Positions 151-57,694 of a stretch of DNA of 64,000 nucleotides are shown piece by piece. This DNA is from Hormiphora californensis (lineage: Eukaryota > Animalia > Ctenophora): positions 7,564,001 to 7,628,000 of the forward strand of contig CM035360.1 in NCBI GenBank assembly GCA_020137815.1. Direction: 5' to 3'. The translations under genes were made by a program, and so were the position numbers. The notes under the pieces were generated by a model that searched no databases, was not told the origin of the DNA, and saw nothing but the letters and a program-made list of their open reading frames with translations. Every line of letters starts with the position of its first letter. Positions within the stretch are counted from its first letter, which is position 1.

Positions 151-4360
<4,210 letters not shown>

Positions 4361-5583
4361 TATAATGAGAGATATGTTGAGATATTTTAATATTTTTGCC
4401 AAAGAACTGCAAGTTTTAGTTGAGGTGAGAGAGTTAAGTTAAAATATTTATAGTAGTAAAGTGATTATGAAGAATCACTGACCAATCCATTTCAAAATGG
4501 AAACTAATCGTATCTGGTCTTTTAAATGGTGTATGTTATATCTATTTATATCTATATTCTCCCTTCACTCTTCTGCCCCCTTTCTCTGACTCCCGCTGGG
4601 TTCTTCACATATGTGGAGATCCCTGTACCCCTCTTTCCCCGTTATAATTCTTACAGTTTAGTTTTTGAAGGTGTGTGAAGGAGTATTATGAAGGATTGAT
4701 CTGTTTGTCGGCGGGGCTGTGTGTGTAAAAGATTTTGTGTGATTTTGTCAGCTTGCCTGCCATCATTTAACGAAAATTCGTGTTTACAATTTGTCATGAG
4801 AACACTGGTACTTACAGGGTACTACTACTACCAGTGATGAAAAACGGGGTGCCGGTATATTTGTATCGGGGGACGGTTGCCAACCGTCGGTTGGTAGATA
4901 GAGCACCAACCATCTCTCTATAATTTCATTATCATGTAACGCGCGAATTATTTGCAACAAATGTGCAGTGCGGTATGCGCGCGGCTCTACACTGCAACTA
5001 AAGTGCGTTTCAAATAAAACGACTTGACCTGAGATTCCTGGAAATTGAGGATTTCCCCTTTGTAAATACACGCGCAATGCGCCAAATTCCAAGAATTACG
5101 GGTCAAGTCGCTTGAAACGGACTTTAAAGCTCTTTAGCTCTGTGCAGATGTGATTTTTTTTTAAACTTTTTAAAACTTTTTTAAAAACTTTTTAAAAGTT
5201 AAATTTTGGGTCTACGCTGTGTAAAATCATGTTAAGCGTGCTTTTCCAGGCGTTTAGGGGACGGGGAGGATGGCTTAGCTCCCTAAATTTTGGTCCAGGT
5301 GCCCCTGGCCCCATTTTCGGTCTCAAATTGGCACAAAATCACAAACATTTTCTGGGGACTTGGTCCTCTTGACCCTTACCAGGGTTTGTAAGGCCCCTTT
5401 TGCGGCCCTGTTTGCCTCTAGACCCTTCATAGGGAGTTTACCAACCACCAACGGCACCCTGACAAGTGACTTGCAACCAGGGCTACACCGATCACAAATC
5501 ACAACTTTCAAAATATCCCCTACATGACTCTGGTTTCATCAACACGTGGTACCATTTATGGCGTAGAATTTGGTAGGGCGCGA

Positions 5584-5840
5584 TTATAATCTGGGTGCCT
5601 TGCAGCGTGTTTACAGGTGCACGCTACCAAAAGAGTACACTTAGACCGACTTTTTTCAAACGGCTATAGCCACGCAACCACATGGCCAATTTGAGTAAAC
5701 TAAACGGTAACTGATAGAGAATCGATAGCCCTAACCGATAACCCCAAACCAAACCCTAACCAGACCCTAACGGATAGCCCTAACACGTCGTGCGCGCTAA
5801 GACTACGAATTGTAAGCAATGAAAGGCACCCAGATTTTAA
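5584..5840. mobile_element. Probable MITE with ~18-bp imperfect TIRs and internal CCCTAA-like units
   Basis: ttataatctgggtgcctt ... aaggcacccagattttaa; ccctaac-like units at 5730-5785. Confidence 0.55.
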
Positions 5841-8800
5841 CGTTTTCCAATTTGGTATCTTCATACCTCTCGCATTTAATTACCTGAAAACTTCTGCGAT
5901 TTCAAACATAACCTGTGGCCTGTCCTGGTCGCTCTGAACTCACCGTGTCCGGGCTTTTTTTGATGAAACTCGCAAAGAGAGAGGGTCAAGTAAGGCAATA
6001 AATAAATGTGAAATTGATGGTATCTTGTTTTTCATAAAAATTTGTAGCGTGTAGATGAAATGATAGGAGCAACTGAGCTCTCTCTATTCGCTGTTACACC
6101 AGTGTTCTGTGCTGTACTCATCGGACTCATTCTACTCTGTGTAAAATGCAGGTAAGAATATACAAATATGTATCTAATGTATGTTATGTAATGTAAGTGC
6201 CTCTCTCAACTTTAACCATTCTTGAATACCATTCAACCAGAAATGATATGAATCATGCTGGTTATAACATTGCCGTGTTATCATAATAAGTTCCACTGAG
6301 TTATTTGAATGCGGTTGAATAGGGTTCTTCCGGTGTGCGATAACAGATAGATTAGACAACATCAATCCCTGCAGGGAAAGAGATAAGAAACATAAAGATA
6401 CAGATTTGATAATCGTTTCTTCGCCACCCCCTTCATCCCCTCCTCCTATAACAGCAGCACCCTGCCCTCCTATTGCTGGTGTCCTACCTACACAGCCCTC
6501 TATTGTTACTGAGAACGGACTAAATGCTGTAAGTGTGGGATAGTGGATAGTTAGTATAAGGGGGGGGGCAGGATAGTGGTGGACAGGACAGTGGAGGGGT
6601 AGGATAATGGGGGACTGTAAGGGCCTCTCCAGACGAAACAAAAGTACGGCTGTTCCTAGCAGCTGAGAATTCTCGTCTGAAGAAGGACAAGATAGTGGGG
6701 CAAGAGTACAGGATAGCGGGGGAGGACATAGGGTAACTAAATTTTAGGAGATGGGGGCAAGGGGACTAGACAGGGGGAGGCGGGTGTAAGCTGGGTGGTT
6801 GCCAAATTAGTTCTCACTGCTTCCGGTATCTCTAGTGGTTTCACCTTTTATTGAAGTACGTCCCCCGGCCTCTTTTGTGTGTGTGTGTGTATTCCCAGTC
6901 TCTACTTAACCTATCTCACCGCCTTTATCTCTCCCTTTGATCTCCTCCTCCCCTCCTCCTCCCCCATTTGTTCCACTCGCCATTCTCCTTGCATGTCATT
7001 TGAGGCCGGGCAATTAGCCCATTTTGAGGAGTTGAGAATATATCGCCCCCATTATCTTTCTTTGTTTTACAGGCATGGCGTGGTTCTGTATTCTGTTATT
7101 GAAGCATACATACATTACATGCCTGTTGCGACTGTATTTGGCAAAGTGCCATTGCAGTTCTAATGTTGTTATCTCGTAGTAGTAGTTGTTGTTCATTCGT
7201 TCTATAATACAGTTACACACTCCTGCAGTAGATCCACAGTGTTTAACCCCTCTCATCTTCCCTTCATGGGGGGAATGATCGGATTATTGTACCAGGTCGG
7301 GGAAGGGACAGGGGGTGTTTTGTCCTTAGCATCCTTCAGATATATCAGGATTATCCATCATTTCGACTCTTTTTTTTCTAACTCCAGCAGCTAGCAGCAG
7401 TTCTCTCTTAGTAGATATATTGTCACTAGCTACTCACCATCCCTCTCATTCCTTGACACACTGTCTCTCTTCTTGACACTCGCTCTCTGCAACATTCCAA
7501 CTACTCCACCCACTTGCTTGCTGAACATATGTTGGAAAAATGTGGGGCAGTATGTCTTTCAGTTCCCATCTGTCACTTTTTCATTTTCCAACACTAACTC
7601 TGCTTTTCCACTCTCCCTCTATACCGGCCATTTAACGAGTATTACCCGAGACTCTCTGCCTCCACTGCTGGAGGGGTATTGTAGGGTCGAGGGAAATATG
7701 TGTACCTAGGTGATGAGATAAAGTAAATGCAGGTTCCTTAATCCTTAGTAACCTGTAAATTAAGTAGCAGAACCTGGTACAAAGAATATTGTTAGGTCCC
7801 GGGAAGTAATCCCAGAAAGATAAAATACTGATAAAGTATATTGGGAATAATCCGGTCCAGTTACAGTCCTCAGACCCGGCTGGGAAGTGCACTGAGGTGT
7901 GAATATATTCCTCCCTCTTGTGAAGTTATATTTTCTTCTTTCTGTGTTTTCCTCTCATAATATTCACTTCTTCTTCGACCCTTTTTACAGCACAGTAGGA
8001 ATTCGGGACATTGTTACCCCCCTGGGGGTGCCCCCAAACTCAATCAGATCTTGTCTCATTGGGGGGGGGGGGGTTCTTATTTTGTATCAGGGGAAGTATC
8101 AATTTGCCACACAACTTTTCAGACACTCATTTAATACGTTCTGCCAGTCTCATTCCTGAATAAGGCTGTCCTTGTCACGTTTTACTGTGACGCTTTTTCC
8201 AGTTCTCTTCCAGCGATCTCCCTTGCTCTTTTTATTAACTCTGCTGTTGGTCCTTACATATATAATATCTAGACGAATATACAGTGCGTTTGTTATTTTC
8301 TTCATTTGAGCTATTCTTAGCCTCTTGCCTTCGTATTAATATGCCACCATTTAAATTTTATGAGAGAGAGGGGATATTAAATATACAAGAGACAAGGGAA
8401 GAAATAAAGAGAAGCAGAGAGAGAGAGAGAGAGAGAGAGAGAACAGAAGATATAGCTTCTGTTGTTGTGGTTGGCTGAACCAGAGAGCTCTAGTATTAGG
8501 TAGGACAGAGCTCTATTAGGCCACTGTGGGCTTGTTGTGCTGTACAAATGAGGAAGACTGGTATCTCTAGTTTCATCTTGGGTTTCTAAACGGTGAATTC
8601 CACAATGTCTAGTTCGGGTTATCTCAGAGGCATTCTGTCTACCTCCCTCTCTGTTATCCTGAACTTGCCTTTTTGCTTGACTCAGTTGTAACTCGTATCA
8701 CTGGGGGCTGCTTCAGTAGTGCATCCTTTCAGTACCTTGGCAGTGCTGCACTATGTGACGTGTTGGCAGCAGCAGAGTTTTTGTGTCGCCCTGTCAACAA

Positions 8801-38493: not shown

Positions 38494-41400
38494 TTATTCA
38501 GGAATAAGAGCTAAACTGGGAGTAGCATCTACCATCTCCCACCTCTCGTCTCCCTGACAGATCTTGTACTTCCCAGCAGGTAGATCCACTGGCTTACCTG
38601 ATAAGGGGGAGGGGGACGAGTTAGTTGATGACAAAATAGTGGGACAACGGTGGGACAATAGTGCAAGTGGGACAAACTACTAACTATTGTAAAGCACAGA
38701 GAGTTGATATATGTTCTCTGACCTGTAATAAGGGGGTATGATTTCCCTCCCTCACCACAATCCACAATACTCCACACTTCAAACCCATTACCAGTAGTCC
38801 TGGTGATCGTAAATGATCCTGAACAGATAGAGAGAGTGGGAGTTATCGAGTAATGAAGGGAGAAATAAATCGTGAAAATCAGGGGGTTTTGTGAGGTTTC
38901 AGATCTTGTACCCGGTAAAGTACCTTGACAACCCACGTACCTTCTTTGACGGTGATATTGTACCTCTCCCCATGGTACACTACACCAGTATAACTAGTAG
39001 AGGTACACCCTGGTAGTAGGTGAGGTGAGAGGTACATGACACTCTCCTCCACCCTCACCCCCAGGTACCCATGTACCAGGGATTGTAGGAACCCTCCTAC
39101 AGCTGTTAGGAAGTTAGTACACCCAACATACTCTGGGTACTCGTTCCACACCTACATTTCGGGGAGGGGTTGGATCAAAATACCACTTACAGTTTGATAT
39201 TTTCATTAGAAATGTAATTATTGTTGGGGAGTCACAGATCTTGTTCTGTCCTAAAGATCTAACCTTGAAAGGTGCTCGGAGGTTCTTGAACTGAATCTGG
39301 AAGAGCTGACCTGCAGTTGTCTCATCTCCCAGTTCTAACATCCCCACACTGTACATGGAATATGTCATACCTGGTCCTGAAAAAGAGGGGATGAGTGGGA
39401 TTATACCCGGTCCTAGAGTAGGAGTAGAGGTTTGGTATTCACATTTATAAAGGAGAAACTTTACTTAGCCCTGAGGGCCTGGTTAATTCACCCTCCTTCG
39501 TTATTTGATAGCTGTAAGACTAACACTACAGTAACTAAAGTGTGTTACCTTTATCAGTACACTTCTCATAGACAGTAATATCGTTCCTCCTAACATCGTC
39601 AGGCATGGTAACACCTAGAGGGTACCCCATTAGTACCACAGAGGCCTGCTTGATCAGGGTACCCTGGGTGTATCCATCGAACTCAGGGTGGTACCTGGGA
39701 GAGATGAGGGAGAAGGGGGTTACAGATCTGAGTGGGGGTTAGGTAGATCACCTGTTATATGGGGGAGTAGTTAGTACTAGAAGGGGTTACAGATCTGTGG
39801 GGGTAGATCACATGCATAGTAGGTGGACGTGACGTGGTGCATGGTTAGTACTAGAAGAAAAATAGCTGTTCTCTGTAGTTTAGTGAGTTAGAGACGTTTG
39901 TTTGAGAAAATAGAGATATATCTTGGTAATTACGTACCTAAGTTGTTTATCGAAAGGTATCTTTATTCTATCCACAACTGACACCCATCGTGGATCAGGG
40001 GTTTTATCCAACTTCCCCGCTGCTTCAATCGCAAATTCTAGATTTAGTCGAGCAGCACTGATGGGGGAAATGAATATTCAGATTACTGGATAAGAGTAAT
40101 CAAGCGTTCAGATAGTGGTGTAAGTTGGTTGACACCCTCCAGTAATTACTAATTAGACCTCACCTGTTAGTGAATGCTGAGTTGTTGACCCTCGCATGAT
40201 ACTCATCAGGGATCCATTACATTATCAATAACAAACACACCTCCCTCCTCTCTCCACTGTACCCTACTGGTCCAGAAGTCAGCAGTCTCTCTGACCACCT
40301 CCCAAGCCCCATCCTCAGTCAACAGCCCCCACCCTCCAGTCCCATAACAATACTGCCTCATAGCATACACCACACATGCAGTTATATGCTGCTGATTATC
40401 TGCATATATCTTCCCTGGACACACATCCACCCCAGTCCTCCCACTCTCCCAGGGATACATGGCACCCATGTAGCCAGCTGCACGAGCCTTGGTTCGTGCC
40501 CCTGGCAGCATGGCTATACGGTACAAGATGGACTGTCTGACGAGGGAGGGGAAGAGGGCGAGAACCCCTGGTAACATCCATAGATCCTGATCCCAGAACA
40601 CGTGGCCCCAGTAATCCTGGTTATCTCCACCGTTACCTGGGGGGATTAGATTGTTATATCAGATGTCTGGTATAGAGGGAGATCGAATTTCCAGTGTTTT
40701 TTATGAAAAAGACATTTAAGGGTACGCTAACCAAAAATTTTTTTCGAGTGCAGGGAAATCTCTCACCGTAGGGTTGTAGGCCATGCCAAGGAGACCTCAA
40801 ATATGCAATTTGAGCTCTCAAGTCGAATTCATATTTTTGCTACAGCTGCTTGAAAAATGAACTGAAAATAAGTTTTTGGCATCTCAAAAAATTTTATTCA
40901 AAGATAGGAGCATGAAAATTTGGGGATTTGAAGAGGACATGAAGGTGAATAACCACAAAAATTTTTTTTGCAATCCGAGCTGATTTCCGGTCCTGAGATG
41001 GATTTCTTTTTTTCCACTTTAACGCCCTATTTGGCAAAGTTCCGAAAACATGTGAAAGCTGTAAATTGGTGAAAAGTTGCGTCTAACGATTATCTAAGTG
41101 GCCATAAATTTTGGGCGTGTCCTTATTTGAGATAAGCTGTACGGAGTTTTTTTTGTGAAAGCCGTCATTTCAGAAATAAATAAATTCCCTGTATCTCAAA
41201 AACGGCTGATCGTAGAGACCTGAGACTATGCTTAAACGATTCAGAAGGTCCGATTTTGGGGGGGGTCTTCTGAGAGACATTTTGCTCCTACTTCAACCGT
41301 TTTTGCTGTAATTGCGAAAAACAATAACCCATCTTCGCCATCGTGGATTTTTTGTGATTTTGTTTTTGATGATTATAGGGACCCATATGGACCAAATAGT

Positions 41401-42963
41401 GAAGGAATTAGCTTGTTAAACATTTTTCCATAGTTTCGGTCCTTCCTTAGCTAAAATTCCCTAATTACAGGATATTGGAGTTTAGCTTTTGCCCTTTTCA
41501 TAGAATTTGTTTTTCGCAATTACAGCAAAAACGGTTGAAGTAGGAGCAAAATGTCTCTCAGAAGACCCCCCCAAAATCGGACCTTCTGAATCGTTTAAGC
41601 ATAGTCTCAGGTCTCTACGATCAGCCGTTTTTGAGATACAGGGAATTTATTTATTTCTGAAATGACGGATTTCACAAAAAAAATTCTGTACAGCTTATCT
41701 CAAATAAGGACACGCCCAAAATTTATGGCCACTTAGATAATCGTTAGACGCAACTTTTCAACAATTTACAGCTTTCACATGTTTTCGGAACTTTGCCAAA
41801 TAGGGCGTTAAAGTGGAAAAAAAGAAATCCATCTCAGGACCGGAAATCAGCTCGGATTGCAAAAAAAATTTTTGTGGTTATTCACCTTCATGTCCTCTTC
41901 AAATCCCCAAATTTTCATGCTCCTATCTTTGAAAAAAATTTTTTGAGATGCCAAAAACTTATTTTCAGTTCATTTTTCAAGCAGCTGTAGCAAAAATATG
42001 AATTCGACTTGAGAGCTCAAATTGCATATTTGAGGTCTCCTTGGCATGGCCTACAACCCTACGGTGAGAGATTTCCCTGCACTCGAAAAAAATTTTTGGT
42101 TAGCGTACCCTTAAATGGGGAGCGTAGAGACAGTACGAACAGTTCAAGGAGAAATCTACTCACCAAGACTACCAGGGCTGACTCCAAAGAATGTAAAGGG
42201 ATAGTTATCCAAGGTAGGTATCTCCAGTGCAAAATGTGGGAAGGAAGCAAGGAGATAGTAGAGGGATGACTTGATAGTCTGGTTCAGATCGTCATCACCA
42301 TTAGCATCAATACCCACAGTATCCCATACCCATTTCCAGGATTCAGTATGAGTTGAGAACAACTCCCCCTTCTTTGCATACCCTAGTGCGAGGTTGTAGA
42401 ACGTCACAGCCTCCTCTAGATTCTCTCCAAATGCCGCCAGATACAGGTAACTCCCCGCAGTTAGAGTGACTGGGAAGGCAGTACTCACATACGCCACAGT
42501 TAGGTGAGGAGCAGTATCTGTTTCTGGTGCATTTATCTGGGCACTAAACTTCACCACTTCACCCTCCATCTCCATGAATGTGGTGGTGAGATCATCACTA
42601 TCAGGACCATGATGGCTCTCCAGCCCCACATCCCCTCCATTAACTGTGATCTCTGTTACAAGGACCCGGTTTAGGACAGAGTGAGCGTAGGAGCGCTGAG
42701 TAAAGTTACCTCCCGTAATAGTGTAGGTGCCTTCCTTACAGTTGAGGGTGTAACCAGTGATGCTAGCACTACTGCTGACATAAGGGAAGGGGACAGGGGA
42801 CTCTGGCTCGGTGACAGGCAGTAGTGTGGCCATTATAGAGGCCGTTTATATGGACAGTGTTACCATGGAGACGATGACCCAGGAACGCGTTGGAGAGGAT
42901 GGGGTTGTTGTTGGGGTTGGAGGGGAGGGACGGTGAGGTTAGGATGTAGGGATCACCCGACAT
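38494..42963 (-). CDS. PGGHG: GH65 glycoside hydrolase, PGGHG/ATHL1-like (frameshift near 42785)
   Basis: NGLYNG...HRARVP, YWGHVFWDQDLWMLP, GAMYPWESG, QQHITA, IKQASVVLMGYPL, GPGMTYSM, NFLTAVGGFLQ. Confidence 0.9.
40720..42110. mobile_element. Non-autonomous foldback DNA transposon, ~600-bp TIRs, TTAA TSD, GG termini (Kolobok-like)
   Basis: 40720-41324 is the near-perfect reverse complement of 41507-42110; ttaa at 40716-40719 and 42111-42114. Confidence 0.92.
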
Positions 42964-43298: not shown

Positions 43299-44579
43299 CT
43301 AAACGTTCATGTTGGGTAGGGCGTGTTGGTTGTTTTGTAACACATGAGGTGAGGGACGGGACTGTTTAAAGAAATACATGAGGGGAGTATTACCTAGTTT
43401 ATCCTGTGCATTAGGAGACAGCCCATTCTCAATCAGCAGCCTCAATATTTCACTGTTGGGTGCATGTATCACACTAAGGTGGAGAAGATTCCTACCATGA
43501 TCATCTACCTTCTCAAAATCAAATATCTCCCGGTCCATTAGGAATCTTATACCCACAACATTCTGATGTCTCACAGCACAATCCAACAGTGACTCACCCC
43601 TCCTGTTCTTGTGGTGTAGCAACTCTGGTACCTTGTTCTCAATGTACTTGTACAATTGTACAAAAGTAGAGGTCTCCTCGCTCTCACAGTAGGGTTGGAG
43701 ACTAAAGAATATGGGGGGATCACCTCTCTGTGACAAAACGGTGACGTCTCCCCCATTCTGTAGCAACTTATCAACCTTGTAGGTGTCCCCTCTCATCGCT
43801 GATATGTGCAGGGGAGACCAGCCGTGAACGTTAACTATGTTAACTTGTAGATCTTTAACACTGAGTAGAGTATCAAACATGATGTGTGATACAGACAGAC
43901 ACGCTTGGTGGATAACAGCCTCTTGTAACACACAGCATGTCGTGTTAACATCGGCACCCAGGTCAATTAATAGCCGAACTGAGAGGGCGTCCTGGTTAGC
44001 TACTGCCAGAAAGAGTGGTGTCTCCCCATATGAGTTAGCACGGTTCACATCAAACCCTGTGGAAAAGAGAAAGTTGAAACGGGGGAAAATGTCATTACAA
44101 ACAAGGGAAACTTGAAACGGAGGAGAGATGTTTGCATACCTATTTTAACTAGACGACGAATAACTGATGACAGGATTGGAAGGCCATCATGCCGTTGTCT
44201 TCGTCTGTAATCGTTGAATGACAAACACAGATAGTTTAGCAAAGGGCAGTTTTCATTGTTAGCCTTCACTTTCAACCATTCTTGTACCACAGGCTGAAAC
44301 ATGGTGTGTGTGATTAACGCGTTATAACAGGTATTGAGAGGCAGTACCAGGTGGTTCCATGAGTCCTACCTCATTAATCCTTTCCTCCACTCTATCTATC
44401 AGGTAGTCAATGATTGACCGCTGCCTGTAGTAACATGCCATCATCAGATAAGTTTCTTTATCGTTGAAAATCTTCAACCACCCATCATTTTCGAAGACAG
44501 ACTTCACGAACGGTAACTCTCCGTCCCTGATTCGGTCTCGTGTGAGCAAATATTGCTGCTCCTCTGGTGTGAATGCCAT
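43299..44579 (-). CDS. Ankyrin-repeat protein, exons ~44350-44579 and 43299-44057
   Basis: GETPLFLAV, GWSPLHISA, GESLLDCAV, GRNLLHLSV, GNTPLMY. Confidence 0.88.
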
Positions 44580-44962
44580 TACTGTAAAATTGGATCATTT
44601 CATACGCTAATAAGAGGGCGAAAAAAGGCGACCGAAATTTCAAGAAGATAAATATGGGCATGTGGCCTCTGACAAGTCACCCTCGAGTCCCTGTATGTCT
44701 GGGGCCATTGGGCGAGAGGCAAGACACCGGTTAGGGAGCAAAACCCCCAACAGCTAGATCCTAGGGACCAGGGGCAGTTAGTAGACCCAGGTATACTCCA
44801 TTTTTTTTCAACTGTTCACCCCCCATTATTATTATTATTATTAAATCTAAAAATGTATACATTGCATTAACTCAACATATACATTTTTTAACTCAACATA
44901 TACATTTTTTGTGGGCAATTTGGATAGTCCTTTCGATTTAAAATTCAATGGTTAGAGTTCAC

Positions 44963-46037
44963 TTAGCCACATTTAATGACCCCCTTACTAATCCAGTAAC
45001 GTCCATTCGGATTATCTCGTTTTAGTTCTTTCAGAGTATCAACAAGAGATTTCCGCTCTCGCTGTTCGTCTGGTGATAGGTCGGGAGAGAGAAAAACGGA
45101 TGAAAACTTCTCTGAACTCTGCAGCTGCTTTGCTTTCCGAAGAAGCTGCAGCAAGGATTCCCTTCTTTCAAGGGTGACGATAACAGGTCTCGCTCGGTCA
45201 TCAGTCTTTAGGCCAACCCGCTTTGTGGAGGTCACGACAGGTTTCTCATTTAGCTCAGCAAAGATATCCTGAACTTCATGATCAGTAGCCCTGGCAGTGG
45301 TTTCTGGGAGCCCAAATATAACCAAATTCAGCTTTCTATCCGGAGTTGTTCTTTCAGTTGGTGGAGAGGAAACTGTCGCCTTCTTCCATGCTTCCTTCAG
45401 GCGAGATGGAGCAATAGCAGCTGAACAATTCTGTACAAGGACCTTGGAGTAGTCATGCAACTGCTTTTAGACAGACTCTGACATCGAGTTGTTTTGAGTT
45501 TTCACGTTTTTGTACTTCAATCAAACTATTTTGTGCTTCTATCAGCTTCCCTTGCAATGCAATCCTTGCTATCCGATGCTTGTCGACTTCTTCTTTGAAC
45601 GTGCTAAGTTCTCTCTGGACCTCCTCCAGTTTCCTATTACAGTCCTCCAGTTGCAGGCGTTCTTTCGTTCTAGCACTTTCATAGTTCTTCATCTTAGTTT
45701 CACACAATCGTTTCTCATTCCCTATTTCCCTCCCCAACTGGAGAATGTGACGACAGAGTTTCTTAGTGATAGCCTGGAGTTTTTCTGCTTGGTACTCCTT
45801 CAACTTGTAATCTAGTGGTAGTGCTTCCTCAATATATTGACGCTCATTATCCTCCGTATCCTTTTCCAAGATCTCTTTTAGTAAATCCTCTACTGCTTCT
45901 CGCTCGCGTTGACGATTCAGAGTTCCATTCTTTACCAACAATATATCACTCATTGCACTAAACAGTGTACTTCTCATCGTACTACCCAAACATTCTCCTA
46001 TACTTGAAGATTTCTTGGGCTTCTCCATCGTCGTCAT
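44963..46037 (-). CDS. LINE ORF1-like protein (coiled coil + Tnp_22/RRM-like + CTD), 1-nt frameshift near 45465
   Basis: RKLNLVIFGLPE, KRVG...RARPVIVTL, LLRKAKQL, VFLSPDLSPDEQRERKSL: typical of L1/L2/CR1-type ORF1. Confidence 0.8.
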
Positions 46038-46057
46038 AGCTTACCAGACGTCATCAA

Positions 46058-46097
46058 CTCAAATTAATTTGTTTAAAGTAGTGTTGAAAAGTTTGAA
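46058..46097 (-). other. Genomic copy of ctenophore-type spliced leader exon
   Basis: Minus strand TTCAAACTTTTCAACACTACTTTAAACAAATTAATTTGAG, 20 nt before the ORF1 ATG; followed by TTG rather than a GT donor, so not an SL RNA gene; identity with the published SL is from memory. Confidence 0.8.
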
Positions 46098-46229
46098 ACC
46101 CCCCAAAGTCGTGCGCGGAATTGTTTTGCGCGTCTATCACATGTTAACGTATAGCGCGCGCCACGAAAATTCTAAATTTCACTGAAATTTCAATTTTGGG
46201 TGAACAGTTGAAAAAAAATGGACTTTAGG

Positions 46230-46560
46230 CCCTAGGAATAAGGGAACGAAGCCCCGGAAAATTTCAGTTGACGTTTCGTTTTTTTTTTCGTTTTAAGTTT
46301 GGTTTTTGTTTTCGAGAAATTTTACTTTTGCCCAGCGCGGTAACATCACAAATAATCGCGCGTTACAGCTAAATTTGTCTAGCGGGTCAATATATTTTAT
46401 TGCGCTGCATACGATTTGAAAGTATTATTTGCGCGCGAAAGTTTTTAGTTTCCAAAGTTGCAAAATTTTCAAGGTTTTTTGTCGTTTCTTTTCGCGCTCT
46501 TCGAGATTTCGTCTTTCGTCGCGTTATCCATGAGGCCTGATCCGCCGCTTTAAGCCTATC
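46230..46560. promoter_or_regulatory. Probable bidirectional promoter between the minus-strand cluster and RPL19
   Basis: Local CpG/CGCG enrichment, E2F-like tttgcgcgcgaaa (~46428) and ttttcgcgc (~46489), located at the strand switch. Confidence 0.45.
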
Positions 46561-47942
46561 GGTATGAGGTAGTTTCTGCTGTCACATGCGGCCAATACGT
46601 TGATTTCCCTTCATGAATATGATACGGGTTGAAATCCCTCTGTTATTTGATCATGAGAGCACTGAGCACGGGCGACTCACGACAGTGTCGAGAAAACACT
46701 CTTGCTGGTTACCTTATCGTGTGGCAGTCCTATCCCTAATGATTCGCCTCGTAACCTTACCCTCTCTACTCTCCCCAGTCTGTGTACTTGAAGCCGTACG
46801 AGATGGGCTGCTCAAATCAATTCGTGAGGTGTCAGGTGTTCCTACTTCTTAGAGCCCTGAGTAGTAAGAAGTAATTTGAGTCACAAATTTTACCAATGTA
46901 GCCTGGTTCAGGATGTGTCATTACGTAGACCGTAGTTCGACCTTACTCTAACAAACTTGAACTAAACTTGACTTAGGGCAGCTTCCGTTTCCGAGCAACC
47001 TTATCAGTCCGCCACAGCTCCCTGTTTTGCATTAGCTCCTTTATCTTGTTGTCGGAGATAAGACCAGTATCGTCCCTGATTTGCTTAAGGAAAGTCTTCT
47101 GGGGCCTCCCAAAAAGTAAAAACTAACTAGAACAAGAACTAAAAAAGGTCTTAAACATGTACCCATGTTGTTAAATTCATTGGAATTCCGTCTTGGTGGT
47201 TTAGTGCAGATCCTAGACTTAATGCCTTTTTAATGAGAAACATTGGTTGACTCTTCATTCGAGTCAACCAGCAAGGCTTGGTTCAATGACTTCAAGTCGA
47301 TAATCGATATCTCTTGCAACTATGCTAGAGTTTCTTGTTATGGCACTTCGTAACTTTAGGTAACGGCACTGAGATCAAGCATAGCCACCATACCTGAAAC
47401 AAAACCAGAATGCTCCTTGCGAACCCAACTAGTAATTATCTAATGCAAATTTAACTACAAGGTTCGTCAGTGTGACGAAGTGATTCGTAGGTGTCACTTA
47501 TCACAACTGTTTGAGAACTTGAGGGATCACATCACCTACTTAAAGAGCAGAGAGAATAAGAGCTAAAGAGGGATCACATAACATTGATCATCTGAGAGAG
47601 TAGAGTGTGGAAAAAAATAGATCCCTCGATTTGTGATCCACTTCTAAACGATGTATCACGTATAACAGACCTCTCTAGTTAGTCCTCTTTTCTTCTCGCG
47701 TATCTAGGTTTAGTAAGTTTTTAATTTTTACTATTGAGCCAATAGTTCAAATATCAGCCTTTAATATCTCCTTTTTAATATCTTGGTAATGCTTAGAACT
47801 TACTGCCATTGCCCGACATTACAATTACCTTGAACATGTGATCTGATTCCATATTCAGCGTGATTGAGGAGAGACGATACTGACTTCCTTGATTCATTGT
47901 CACCTTCTGATAGTGGTCTAACCCCTTCCACTTTAACTAGGC

Positions 47943-48920
47943 ATGTCGAGTCTCAAGCTGCAGAAGAGGTTGGCTTCCTCGGTCATGAAATGTGGCAGGA
48001 AGAAGGTGTGGTTGGACCCTAACGAGGCTTCTGAGATCAGTAACGCCAACTCCCGTAAGTATAGCTGCTGATAGAGAGAAAACTTTCTTTTCACTAAAAG
48101 AGAATATGAAATATTATTTATTCAACAACAAAAATAAGAGTAATTCTCTTGACCTACGCGTCATTTGACAACGTGTCTCCCATCAATCCTTAGCATTGAT
48201 CATGTTTCCCATAATAAGCTTTGTCCGGTCTGTGACATTTATTGTTTTATCGGGAACAAGTTTCTTCATCTTCTACGAGGACGCTGGCTAGTGCAAAGCA
48301 CTAGCCAGTAAGGGGTGGGTGCCATGAGGCTCCCGCCCGGCTCCCGTTCCCATTTCCCAACAAGTTTACTGTGTGGGCGTTTGTTTTTTCACACAGTCCA
48401 TACTGCATACGGTACAATTAGTAATGAAAGTGCATCATGAGTTATGTAACATTATTATTACTCATTAGTAACTACAATTTTAGTCTTTTTAGTAGTGTCT
48501 TCAATACTTTCTCCCCATTCTCTCTCACTCTCTGGCCTATGCCCGGTCCTGTTTACAAGCCATACAACAGGGATTTCGACCAGCACATGAGAATTGAGAA
48601 GGTTGTATCGACCCTGTTTAGAATCAGGGATTCTGCCAATAGTGTAAAGTAAATGTACCTAATCGAGATTAATCTGGCCGAGATTCCTGCTGTATGGCTT
48701 GTAAACAGGGTATCGGGGCTGGGTGTTCCTTACAGAGACGAGATGCAGCGGCTATTAAAAGCCATCCCATTTCAACTGACAGTACCGGTGTTAGTGCACC
48801 AAGTTAAAACTTCATTTAATTATGGATTAGATCATCAGAAGCAAATTTTGTTAAATGCTTCGTCTGCAGTACTGGTCTTGGGCCAGGCATTAGACCATCA
48901 ACCCAAGTTTTCTTTCTTCA

Positions 48921-48989
<69 letters not shown>

Positions 48990-50448
48990 ATTCACCCATA
49001 ACCTCTCATCTGAAGAAGTCTGAGATCATTTTAGGCCTTCGACTGGCACCTAAATTTAGGATAACATCATATCGAATCACAGCCATGACATGAGCCAAGG
49101 TCACCCGATGCCAAATGAATCTGTAAAATAGTTTCTATCAACTTGTTTAGATTAGTACAGTGTACATTGAAGTAGTTTGTATGTAATACATAATTCCCGA
49201 AAAGATGTGTATTCCGGACTGTATAACAGTATTTTCTACTACACATAACACATTTTAATCCCAACCTCTTATAATCATTTCCCTTATTTTGGTCTGTGAG
49301 AATTGAGATACACACATACATTGAGTTCCCTAATCATTGCTTTCGTTTCAATCAATCATTGTCTCAAAAGCACATTTTAATTATACAATTAATTAAGAAA
49401 AGAAAACCTCTCTCGATACTGGAGGCATGACCCCTAGCCCTCCATGATTCACGTCCCCTTCCACAATAACTTGGTACACTCAGTTTGGGAGACATGTCTG
49501 TAGCGCGCCGCGACACACTCCCATGCAATAACGCACTCGTGTTACTATCACTCTACGCGTTTTTTAGTGCGCGCTCAGAGCAGGTGGATTGGTAGGGCGC
49601 CGCGCACTGTCATATCTCACTTCCTGTCTCCAATGAGAGAGAGACCTCCATATCCCACTGACCATGACTCCTCTCCAGAGAGAGATCTCCATATTGACCT
49701 CCTGTTCTCCCTCCCATATCCCACTGACCACTCCTCTCCCACAGGACAGAACATCAAGAAGCTTATCAAGGATGGTCTGATCATCAAGAAGCCCCAGACT
49801 GTTCACTCTCGTGCTCGATGCAGGAAGAACAGGGAGGCCCGCCGAATGGGACGTCACACTGGTACGTTCTTTTTTGTGTTTGACCTCTCCAACCTTAATT
49901 CATCCCACTTATTCTACATTGGGGGATTAGAACACAACATCTAATCTATATCTATTTAACACATCTTCATTCCCAGGCCCCGGAAAGAGGAAGGGTACTG
50001 CTAATGCCCGTATGCCTGAGAAGGTTGTATGGATGAGACGTATGCGAGTACTGAGGAGGCTTCTTAAGAAATACAGGGAAGACAAGAAGATCGACAAGCA
50101 CATGTAAGTTACAACATCCTAACTGCTGCAGTACCACACCTGCCCAATCTCTAGTCCCCACTAATTGTTGAGTTTATCTCTCTGTCCAAATCTTTAACAC
50201 CCCACTATCCCCCTGCCAGGTACCACGAGCTGTATGTCCAGTCTAAGGGTAACATTTTCAAGAACAAGCGAGTCCTAATGGAGCACATCCACAAGAAGAA
50301 GAGTGAGGCTGCCCGAGCCAAGGCTCTCCAGGAGCAGGCTGATGCCCGACGAGCCAGGTCCAGGGCCACACAAGAGAGGAAGGCTGCCAAGACTGCCCAG
50401 AAACAGGCTCTATACATGAACATCGAGGAGGTCGCCGAGGAATCTTAG
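47943..50448 (+). CDS. RPL19: 60S ribosomal protein L19 (eL19); exons 47943-48054,49745-49861,49977-50103,50220-50448
   Basis: [28 protein letters not shown]...[18 protein letters not shown]...[12 protein letters not shown]...[17 protein letters not shown]. Confidence 0.98.
48930..48986. repeat. (CT)n microsatellite
   Basis: Directly visible. Confidence 0.95.
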
Positions 50449-52962
50449 ATTTTTACGTTGCCTGTTTTTATTCTAAACGAAAATTAACGTGTTTTGAGAA
50501 TTTGTTAACAAAGGACAGCCTTTACTATTTCTCTCACTCAAATCATGAGGCTGTTCTAAACCGTTACTCGAATGGTGTGTATGTGTATCACTCAGAGCAA
50601 GTTACTTCGGAAGCTCCAGGATTCAGGAAGACCGTGGTCAGTCAGTCACCGAATGCGTGCGGATATCCACCCCAGACCTCGTCCCGGTATTTTCCATGCG
50701 CGCTCTTCATTGATTTGCTGTCGGTAGTGCAATCACAGTGATTTGTGTCAACGCGCGTCACACAAATCATCTGGGGCAGTCTCAGAGTGGAATTATACGG
50801 ATCGGGGGACGAGATCTGCCTGGTTGCTGGTTGCACCGATCTAAACACACTGTCGGGTGACGCCATAATGATCGGGATCCAGTCCAGAGTTCTGTTTGGA
50901 GCCGATCAGATAGTTTCCTGTGTCGGCAACATGATCCAGTTGGTTTTGATTTAGTCTCAGTTTACAGTATCAATTGAACACTTTATGTCACACTTCACGG
51001 CCTAAGAAGCTCTAAAAGGTTTTCTCCTGATTTACACTGTTCTAGTTCTAACTCAGTTAGGCAGCCTAACTTATCAAGGTCTTATTGAAATGTGACAAAA
51101 GGTCAACTAATTGAGTTTAGTCTCGAAATCGAGGTCGTTGCAGTCAGTAAACTGCGTATCTCACAATTGGCTGTTCTAGGAATTGGAGTTTTTCTCGTTA
51201 GGCTGGAAATGTATCTCCCTCTTCTAACTAGGTTTTCCAGGAATTGTGTCTCGGTAAAAACTGCACTTCAATCCCTACAAGTTGTAGAATCCCGACATCA
51301 CCTACATTTCTACCTATCATTCCCGACTATTCTTTCTCTCTATATCTCCCTGACTCAAATACTTTCACACTTTTAAATATGCATCCAGATATTTGGTATG
51401 AGACACGTTTTCAAAAAATGCTGATCCTGATTGTTAGTTGTTTCTCATCAATATTTTGTATTTGACACAGTTTGGCAATGTCGGCAATGTCGCCAAAACA
51501 AATAAGAGAGATAGGGTGCAGCGGGAATAGTTTAATTGGGTTTTTTGTCCACGTACGGGTAACCCATTCCAATAATAATTTGATTAGGACCCTTTGCACC
51601 TATTGGAACCGATATGAAGTGGGTAGTATAGCGAAAGTCGAAAGTGTCGTCAATGTTGATATCGTTCCTGGTTGATATAGTATTGGTATTGAAACTACCC
51701 TTCCGTGTGAACTATGAGCCCTTACTCAACAAGTGAGCTCCCCATTAGACACGGGCTTTGCAAAATAAACGGGTGACTTTGTAACTCAGTTGGTATAGTA
51801 CTTGTTGTTCCTGACCTAAACTCTAAAGAGCGTACTCATCACATGCACCTGAATTCATACCCTAGTTTTAGTTTCTATATGTACAGCGTTCCCTCGACTC
51901 TCTTTGTCTTTTATAAAGCGTGCAACGCATGGCTAGGCTACTATGTGAAGAACCCATGATTTTGAACTTTCCAAGTTTAAAAATTATTAAGCCCCTTCAG
52001 GAAGCTGAGTTGCTCTGTGTCCGCCTCTGAGATATGAACTTGGCTGGAGCTATGTCAAGTTGCTCCATATGTCGCTCCATGCAAGATAATTGGCTTAGTC
52101 CACTACGCCCCTGTGCATATGGTAAAAACATATTAGGCTTCTTTTTTCCAATCCCTACCCCTGGCAAACATATGCTTTTCCTAGTTCGATTTGCCGGTAT
52201 TTGTTTCGAAAGTTTCGGTTTCTCTGTTTTAAACAAATTTAGAGGGAACATGCTTGCTGCTATATGGTATCTGGAGGGTGGCGAAACCTTGCAGCATCCA
52301 AGGGCAGAGAATAAGGGAGATAGAAACATGTAACACTTCCCCAGCTTTGTTTTCGACCTGGTCGTGCGGAAAACTTAAAACATAGCGTCCTTTTCATTCT
52401 TCAAGTTCCCTTATTGAATAATAATATTGATTATTGACGTGGCCACTGTTCATGCCTTAACAAGATACCAATTAAATCGAGGTCCCATTGTTTGTTGCAG
52501 ATACAATGACCGTATCGTAATGTGGTCATGCAGTTAGCCCCCCCCCCCCATGACATACGGTTTGTCACATACAATCTGTTTTTCCTGGTACAACCCTAAT
52601 ATAATTAGTATTTCCAATGCCGAAAGTGGCGTACTGCTCTTTACGGTATTTAGTATTGGTACCCAGTTCCCAGTTCCCAGTTCTAATTCCTTTTGTCCTG
52701 TCCTCATTGCAAACCACACACATAATACACCTTTCTCTCTTTCTCTACCACTCAAATTAGTACTTGATTATAACTAATCAATGAAAAGCATATATGTGCA
52801 TTCTGAGCTCTTTGCCAATGGTCTGAATTCTGAACAATTACTTTACACAGACACCTGTCGCGGCCCAGTCTGTAAACTGGGCGCCGAGGCCACTTATAAA
52901 CTTCATCAAGCCGACTGTAGATGGAATCTTTCATCAAAGAAATACACCTTTTAATTATTCTA

Positions 52963-54909: not shown

Positions 54910-57694
<2,785 letters not shown>

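Follow-up and report, generated by a model that had tools for sequence, protein, structure and literature searches.

A disabled, spliced-leader-headed ORF1-only retroposon in Hormiphora californensis and a possible ctenophore family renewing its 5′ end by host trans-splicing

How does an element that codes only for an ORF1-type protein come to begin, in genomic DNA, with a copy of its host's spliced leader, and how could it keep that 5′ end from one round of retroposition to the next? The question is raised by an insert on the minus strand of the window, the 64,000-nt stretch of the ctenophore Hormiphora californensis analyzed here (contig CM035360.1, positions 7,564,001 to 7,628,000). Non-LTR elements must regain a 5′ end and a promoter in every cycle, a need known to be solved by internal promoters and by self-cleaving ribozymes (cf. 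trypanosome Pr77). The reading we favor, at a probability of roughly 60%, is that the insert is a disabled copy of a multicopy, ORF1-only ctenophore retroposon family whose host-leader 5′ end is generally renewed by trans-splicing.

The insert is 1.28 kb long and is flanked by identical 8-mers at 46098–46105 and 44818–44825, a match with a chance of ~8e-6 as computed for a fixed pair of junctions. Read along the minus strand, it comprises the 5′ target-site duplication (46105–46098), a DNA copy of the leader (46097–46058), 20 nt, an ATG at 46037, and a coding region extending to 44963, followed by a 3′ UTR (44844–44962), a (TAA)6 simple-repeat tail (44843–44826), and the second 8-mer (44825–44818), which matches both the 5′ duplication and the joint of the empty site. 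This empty target, carrying a single 8-bp copy, was found in 4/4 DNA runs, where contigs join 44817 to 46098 across eight shared letters. The insert has neither LTRs nor terminal inverted repeats of its own; the inverted repeat flanking it belongs to a host repeat. By its target duplication and simple-repeat tail, it is a non-LTR insertion of the target-primed reverse transcription (TPRT) type. An initial annotation, made from the letters of the window, had reported the duplication, the 20-nt spacer, the start codon, and the tail, all of which we confirm; the 3′-UTR tandem duplication that it described is also present (44867–44910), with a period of 21 and a 23-nt run, not the 22 bp given. The main contig of run X1 lacks this duplication and is 18 nt shorter at that place. 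The last ~40 nt of the insert are common to further repeats, as indicated by depth and a loose end at 44864. None of the contigs listed for the sequencing runs bridges this copy's own junctions, which therefore rest on the assembly and the target duplication.

The head of the insert is a host sequence. The 40-mer at 46058–46097, annotated initially as a spliced leader, reproduces without mismatch the final 40 nt of the 44-nt H. californensis leader (PMC8527503); the two closing letters of the 5′ duplication coincide with leader positions 3–4 (microhomology) and raise the match to 42 of 44 nt. Such a head supports the proposal that an RNA already carrying the leader served as template and was copied nearly to its 5′ terminal base. 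The embedded leader is followed by TT, not GT; lacking a splice donor, it does not qualify as a leader RNA gene. In the published account, the genome contains 718 copies of the leader, which is also found on at least 56% of long reads (PMC8527503). Across three runs (X1, X2, X5), the leader continues into 12–16 different downstream contigs per run and is joined to 10–19 different upstream contigs per run, the match stopping near the leader's second base. Leader-headed insertions are therefore likely to be common in this genome. Some of the other genomic leader junctions (loose ends at 46051, 46056, and 46058; X1, X2, X5) have what we take to be a resemblance to a hammerhead-ribozyme core, read from a mixed-contig consensus; they possibly represent a second class of leader-headed retroelements. 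The leader pattern had 0 matches among viral and prokaryote contigs, and an Rfam search of window positions 44500–46800 and of four related loci (L001–L004, below) returned nothing near the gathering score, hence no ribozyme or known RNA head.

The junction at the end of the leader was also proposed to serve as a splice acceptor in the integrated copy, an idea that found no support in any test. The embedded acceptor reads GAG, whereas neighboring acceptors (RPL19 and the ankyrin gene) read CAG or TAG in 5/5 cases, and four CAG/TAG sites, better candidates, lie at 46134–46232, 76–174 nt upstream of it. GAG acceptors are rare in eukaryotes.

The insert does not sit in plain intergenic DNA. It splits a 154-bp, MITE-like hairpin repeat (44791–46224) with 25-bp inverted arms at 44797–44821 and 46198–46222. 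The empty target read in 4/4 DNA runs belongs to other copies of this repeat. One 1487-nt contig of run X6 skips the whole 1434-nt block, so repeat and insert are missing from one allele. The repeat itself (44791–44825 plus 46106–46224) reaches very high depth in each of the four DNA runs; its presence is polymorphic at this locus, and no obvious target duplication of its own was seen. Immediately beyond lies a CpG-rich stretch (46225–46500; CpG observed/expected 2.3 in 46250–46499), which we infer to be a candidate bidirectional promoter between RPL19 on the plus strand and a run of minus-strand genes. The insert lies in sense orientation between this stretch and the acceptor of the run's first gene, an ankyrin-repeat gene whose acceptor (CAG at 44582) and start codon (44577–44590, minus strand) lie 236 nt downstream of the insert. 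RPL19 occupies 47942–50449 with at least three introns, and the minus-strand run (19421–44579) includes ankyrin, GH65, C2H2 zinc-finger, RMI1, ClpB-type, and ABC2 domains. Elsewhere in the window are a 612-bp inverted repeat of 99% identity (40713–41324 and 41507–42117) and a degenerate purine-rich tandem repeat (56015–56674) within a 654-aa open frame.

The coding region (44963–46037, minus strand) had been described as a LINE ORF1-like gene; the type holds, and the gene is broken in this copy. It is split into 194 and 167 aa in different frames: 7 nt at 45491–45497, which shift the frame, are absent from contigs of other copies in 6/6 sequencing runs, and the in-frame stop at 45467–45469 is Gln in the run contigs. 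The window copy is thus a decayed member, unable to make ORF1. Relatives with an intact frame span 325–363 aa at 33–99% identity, the gene measuring 355 aa where it is intact. A structure model built on 18 sequences (pLDDT 68.7) predicts a 95-residue helix, corresponding to the coiled coil, followed by an RRM and a small C-terminal domain. In Foldseek the first 11 rows are human LINE-1 ORF1p (best E 1.1e-6); a second structure aligner ranks human LINE-1 ORF1p 1–3 among 48,161 chains (Z 9.8, rmsd 2.6, 86 aligned), with unrelated RRMs next at Z 8.9. LINE-1 ORF1p is the only solved ORF1 among the fold matches, and identity to it is 20–24%. A profile of the family's ORF1 matches the ORF1 of locus L004, a complete LINE with endonuclease and reverse transcriptase (EN-RT), at 98% probability. 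Predicted fold and likeness to a complete LINE's ORF1 together support assignment of the gene to the LINE ORF1 type. No Pfam family scored above cut-off, and the Pfam and PDB sequence searches gave coiled-coil noise. In the ESM Atlas, as a lead only, the protein fell among unnamed clusters whose commonest phylum was Ctenophora on 1 and 9 labeled members (scores 0.89–0.90). The reported absence of RT and EN was borne out: tblastn found no match to either in the 64-kb window, nor did ORF2 of L004 match the window.

Several lines of evidence place this copy in a family. Contigs from the sequencing runs are stated to drop rare variants, and their depth is a rough guide, not a copy number. Run X1 holds two element contigs at depths of 425 and 271, against 19–49 for flank contigs, and in X6 element contigs reach 3300–8100 against a flank at 544. 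Subfamilies that are ~83% alike occur in X1, X5, and X8, and in X14, a second organism. Among the best 40 of 137 variant rows, with one UTR row dropped, 21 of 39 coding variants are silent, including 14 of 18 in the C-terminal part; between loci L001 and L003, dN/dS is 0.16 over 319 codons. Judged from these sequence comparisons, this is a multicopy family with intact ORF1s under purifying selection. The initial description of a nonautonomous retroposon is upheld: by the depth of the element contigs, the subfamilies, and leader-headed relatives, the element is multicopy and no one-off retrocopy. Two sets of contigs with clade members (44 and 50; P0009 and three clusters outside the clade are left out of these counts) have median lengths of 1422 and 1262 nt, and the longest measures 3122 nt, too short for ORF1 plus ORF2, although such contigs are generally short anyway.

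In the main subfamily the 5′ end was not traced to a leader. Its contigs match the window up to 46042, a point 5 nt ahead of the ATG, and part from it there, so that a 15-nt 5′-UTR segment of the window copy (46043–46057, minus strand) is private to it, with loose ends at 46042 in X1, X2, and X5. Beyond that point run 49 (X1), 52 (X2), and 34 (X5) loose letters, of which the 30 displayed are not leader. No joint of these letters to the leader is listed, though joints with 18–21-nt sides are listed elsewhere, and the joint to a leader predicted at their far end was not observed. In the RNA library X8, part of the ORF is present at depth <25, too little to demonstrate transcription, and 45807–46021 is uncovered, leaving no leader–ORF transcript joint; a different 3′ UTR follows directly after the stop there. 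In Pleurobrachia bachei, gene model P0009 carries the family's C-terminal half at 91% identity, fused to GINS Psf3. The fusion suggests that here, too, a copy lies in sense orientation shortly before a host gene; being a gene-model fusion, P0009, the only longer relative that our weak search found, was rejected as a longer form of the element.

Relatives beyond the genome carry the argument about the head. Of 60 candidate stretches in one metagenome scan, four (L001–L004) were confirmed, three of them ORF1-only; among viral and prokaryote contigs, 33 and 44 candidate stretches yielded no confirmed match to the ORF1 profile. All three ORF1-only loci (L001–L003) begin with the leader or with its last bases, in line with the leader as a family trait; these heads may show trans-spliced RNA only. 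The first 26 of 26 letters of L002 are identical to the window's leader, at 41% protein likeness. L001 is headed by a leader variant (score 42, reached by 0 of 5000 shuffles, and the best place in the locus), and L003 by the leader's last three letters, followed by a 5′ UTR shared with L001. We infer the variant at L001 to be the current leader of its host. In the window, L001, and L002, the stretch from head to ATG holds no tandem or relict leader. In a quick tree, L002 and L001/L003 form a clade (99) that is sister to the window's clade (99). L002 thus shares the window's leader and groups with L001/L003, so the head is independent of the element tree, and the leader was therefore likely renewed from the host.

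The 3′ ends may reflect exchanges. L001 and L003 run from ORF1 to six-letter repeat tails, which differ between the two, with no ORF2, and L002 ends at the stop. The L001 and L003 ORFs are 86% alike, and their 3′ UTRs (L001:1031–1252; L003:980–1186) are unalignable; the mismatch suggests, on sequence grounds, that 3′ ends or partner LINEs may have been exchanged. L004 (L004:1–3695) is a complete ORF1 plus EN-RT LINE with a (CTA)n tail and no leader, which we take to belong to the CR1/L2 group. It forms a long, distant branch in the quick tree. A search for an RT-encoding LINE sharing the element's 3′ end, as had been called for, found no partner: the 3′ end of L004 is not shared with the window, and no 3′-UTR likeness was found among the window, L001, L003, and L004.

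These observations can be arranged into a proposed cycle for a family that likely lacks its own promoter. Where a copy has landed behind a host promoter or within an operon, it would be transcribed by read-through; trans-splicing would then remove the flank and add a capped leader, either at the embedded AG or at a nearby host acceptor. The element RNA would be coated by ORF1 protein, and a borrowed LINE enzyme, presumably of the CR1/L2 group, would prime at the tail and copy to within 2–4 nt of the cap. The private 15-nt 5′-UTR segment possibly derives from flank captured at the parent copy's insertion site, and it suggests a second route, in which a 5′-truncated parent uses a host acceptor. 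New sources must descend from leader-headed insertions, and together with the lack of tandem leaders in the three readable heads this points to an internal promoter or to re-splicing at the exact junction; that the head does not track the tree speaks for renewal. Re-use of precisely the embedded AG we hold as a tentative proposal, with the odds somewhat against it.

Other histories could produce the same insert. It might be a processed retrocopy whose sources are a small number of fixed genes—a domesticated ORF1 family driven by an ordinary promoter, with an outron, and trans-spliced as host mRNAs mostly are—and all leader-headed copies would then be dead ends. The window copy is indeed dead, the 5′ end of the main subfamily is not tied to the leader, and a host gene would fit purifying selection equally well; a leader found on at least 56% of host reads would, moreover, be expected on any retrocopy (PMC8527503). 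What renders this account unlikely is that the tails are simple repeats, not poly(A), and vary by subfamily; that ORFs 86% alike carry unrelated 3′ UTRs; that several subfamilies stand at many times flank depth with their frames intact; and that the insertion is polymorphic together with the host repeat. A different account dispenses with trans-splicing altogether: the leader would be an inherited SINE-like head containing an internal promoter, with transcription starting at the first base. The weak GAG acceptor and the lack of tandem or relict leaders before the ATG in the window, L001, and L002 fit it, and in dinoflagellates retroposed leaders have been proposed as promoters (PMC6050394). 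A nematode leader is said to have an internal promoter role, which a literature search did not confirm. An inherited head should drift, however, yet 26 of 26 letters remain identical at 41% protein identity, the closer relative has a different leader, and genomic copies begin 1–3 nt short of the leader's first base. We regard an inherited promoter head as distinctly improbable.

Very little weight falls on the idea that an autonomous LINE gave rise to an early-ending message containing ORF1 alone and that the insert is a retrocopy of it. The ORF1 is of LINE type and a longer parent is possible, but 0 of 94 clade-member contigs exceed 3.1 kb (weak evidence, such contigs being short anyway), ORF2 is absent from 3/3 close loci, and the sole longer relative found is the gene-model fusion to GINS Psf3. 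An assembly chimera is the least credible of the alternatives and hardly to be entertained: no listed contig bridges the junctions or carries this copy's private changes, but the contigs are stated to drop rare variants, and the exact 8-bp duplication agrees with the host repeat's empty site as read in 4/4 DNA runs. An element of the NeSL kind, which targets leader genes, was considered and rejected, since the insert has no RT, its target is a hairpin repeat, and the leader lies within the duplication.

Our preferred reading, a retroposon family whose host-leader end is renewed by trans-splicing, would, if true, add a further answer to the 5′-end problem: a family that hands the jobs of 5′ end and promoter to host trans-splicing. 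The leader would become a marker of full-length retroposition in ctenophores, the 718 genomic leader copies of Hormiphora (PMC8527503) would receive a new interpretation, and an ORF1-only element would be on record outside mammals, which bears on the question why selection maintains ORF1 in such elements. A broader version is possible, although we would wager against it: an old, ctenophore-wide, promoterless ORF1-only lineage living in operon-like read-through regions, regaining its exact 5′ end each time through a new host leader spliced to the AG of its own leader copy and, with other leader-headed families, accounting for much of those 718 copies.

Among known systems, no leader-headed ORF1-only retroposon, and no such element in ctenophores, was found in the full-text literature searched, which covers few subscription journals and not Repbase; the available portions of PMC2566580, PMC4664967, PMC1657053, and PMC12460157 contain nothing on leader-headed retroposons. 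NeSL elements are likewise non-LTR elements found beside leader sequence in DNA, but they are autonomous elements whose insertion sites are leader genes, whereas the ctenophore insert is without RT, carries the leader inside its duplication, and has a hairpin-repeat target (PMC4640811, as far as its accessible text describes them). SINEs with snRNA-derived heads similarly carry a small spliceosomal-type RNA at the head of a retroposon; those described in the accessible part of PMC4494074 are noncoding with an inherited head, whereas the ctenophore head is apparently renewed and the element encodes ORF1. In Hydra, the leader is present on ~30% of long reads from transposable elements (TEs), so animal TEs do use host trans-splicing (PMC12220107). 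That observation is made at the RNA level and for TEs in general; leader-headed genomic copies or an ORF1-only family are not described in the portion of PMC12220107 at hand.

Two systems come closest. In dinoflagellates, trans-spliced RNA is retroposed with its leader and can then be expressed and retroposed once more (PMC6050394, citing Slamovits and Keeling 2008), so the idea of a recycled leader is not without published precedent. According to the available text of that source, the dinoflagellate retrogenes are host genes that gather tandem relict leaders, whereas the ctenophore element keeps a single, near-complete leader at the three readable loci. HAL1 (half-L1) of mammals is a multicopy, nonautonomous LINE derivative that codes only for ORF1p (PMC5753468, in the part available); the likeness lies in ORF1p-only coding, multiple copies as indicated here by contig depth and subfamilies, and lack of autonomy, ORF2 being absent from the window and L001–L003 too. 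HAL1 is derived from L1, whereas the ctenophore ORF1, which matches L1 ORF1p in fold, appears closest to that of L004, an EN-RT LINE with a simple-repeat tail; the ctenophore element differs further in its (TAA)n-type tail and its host spliced-leader 5′ end. By analogy with these accounts, the ctenophore element appears to combine HAL1-like coding content with dinoflagellate-like recycling of the leader at its 5′ end (PMC5753468, PMC6050394).
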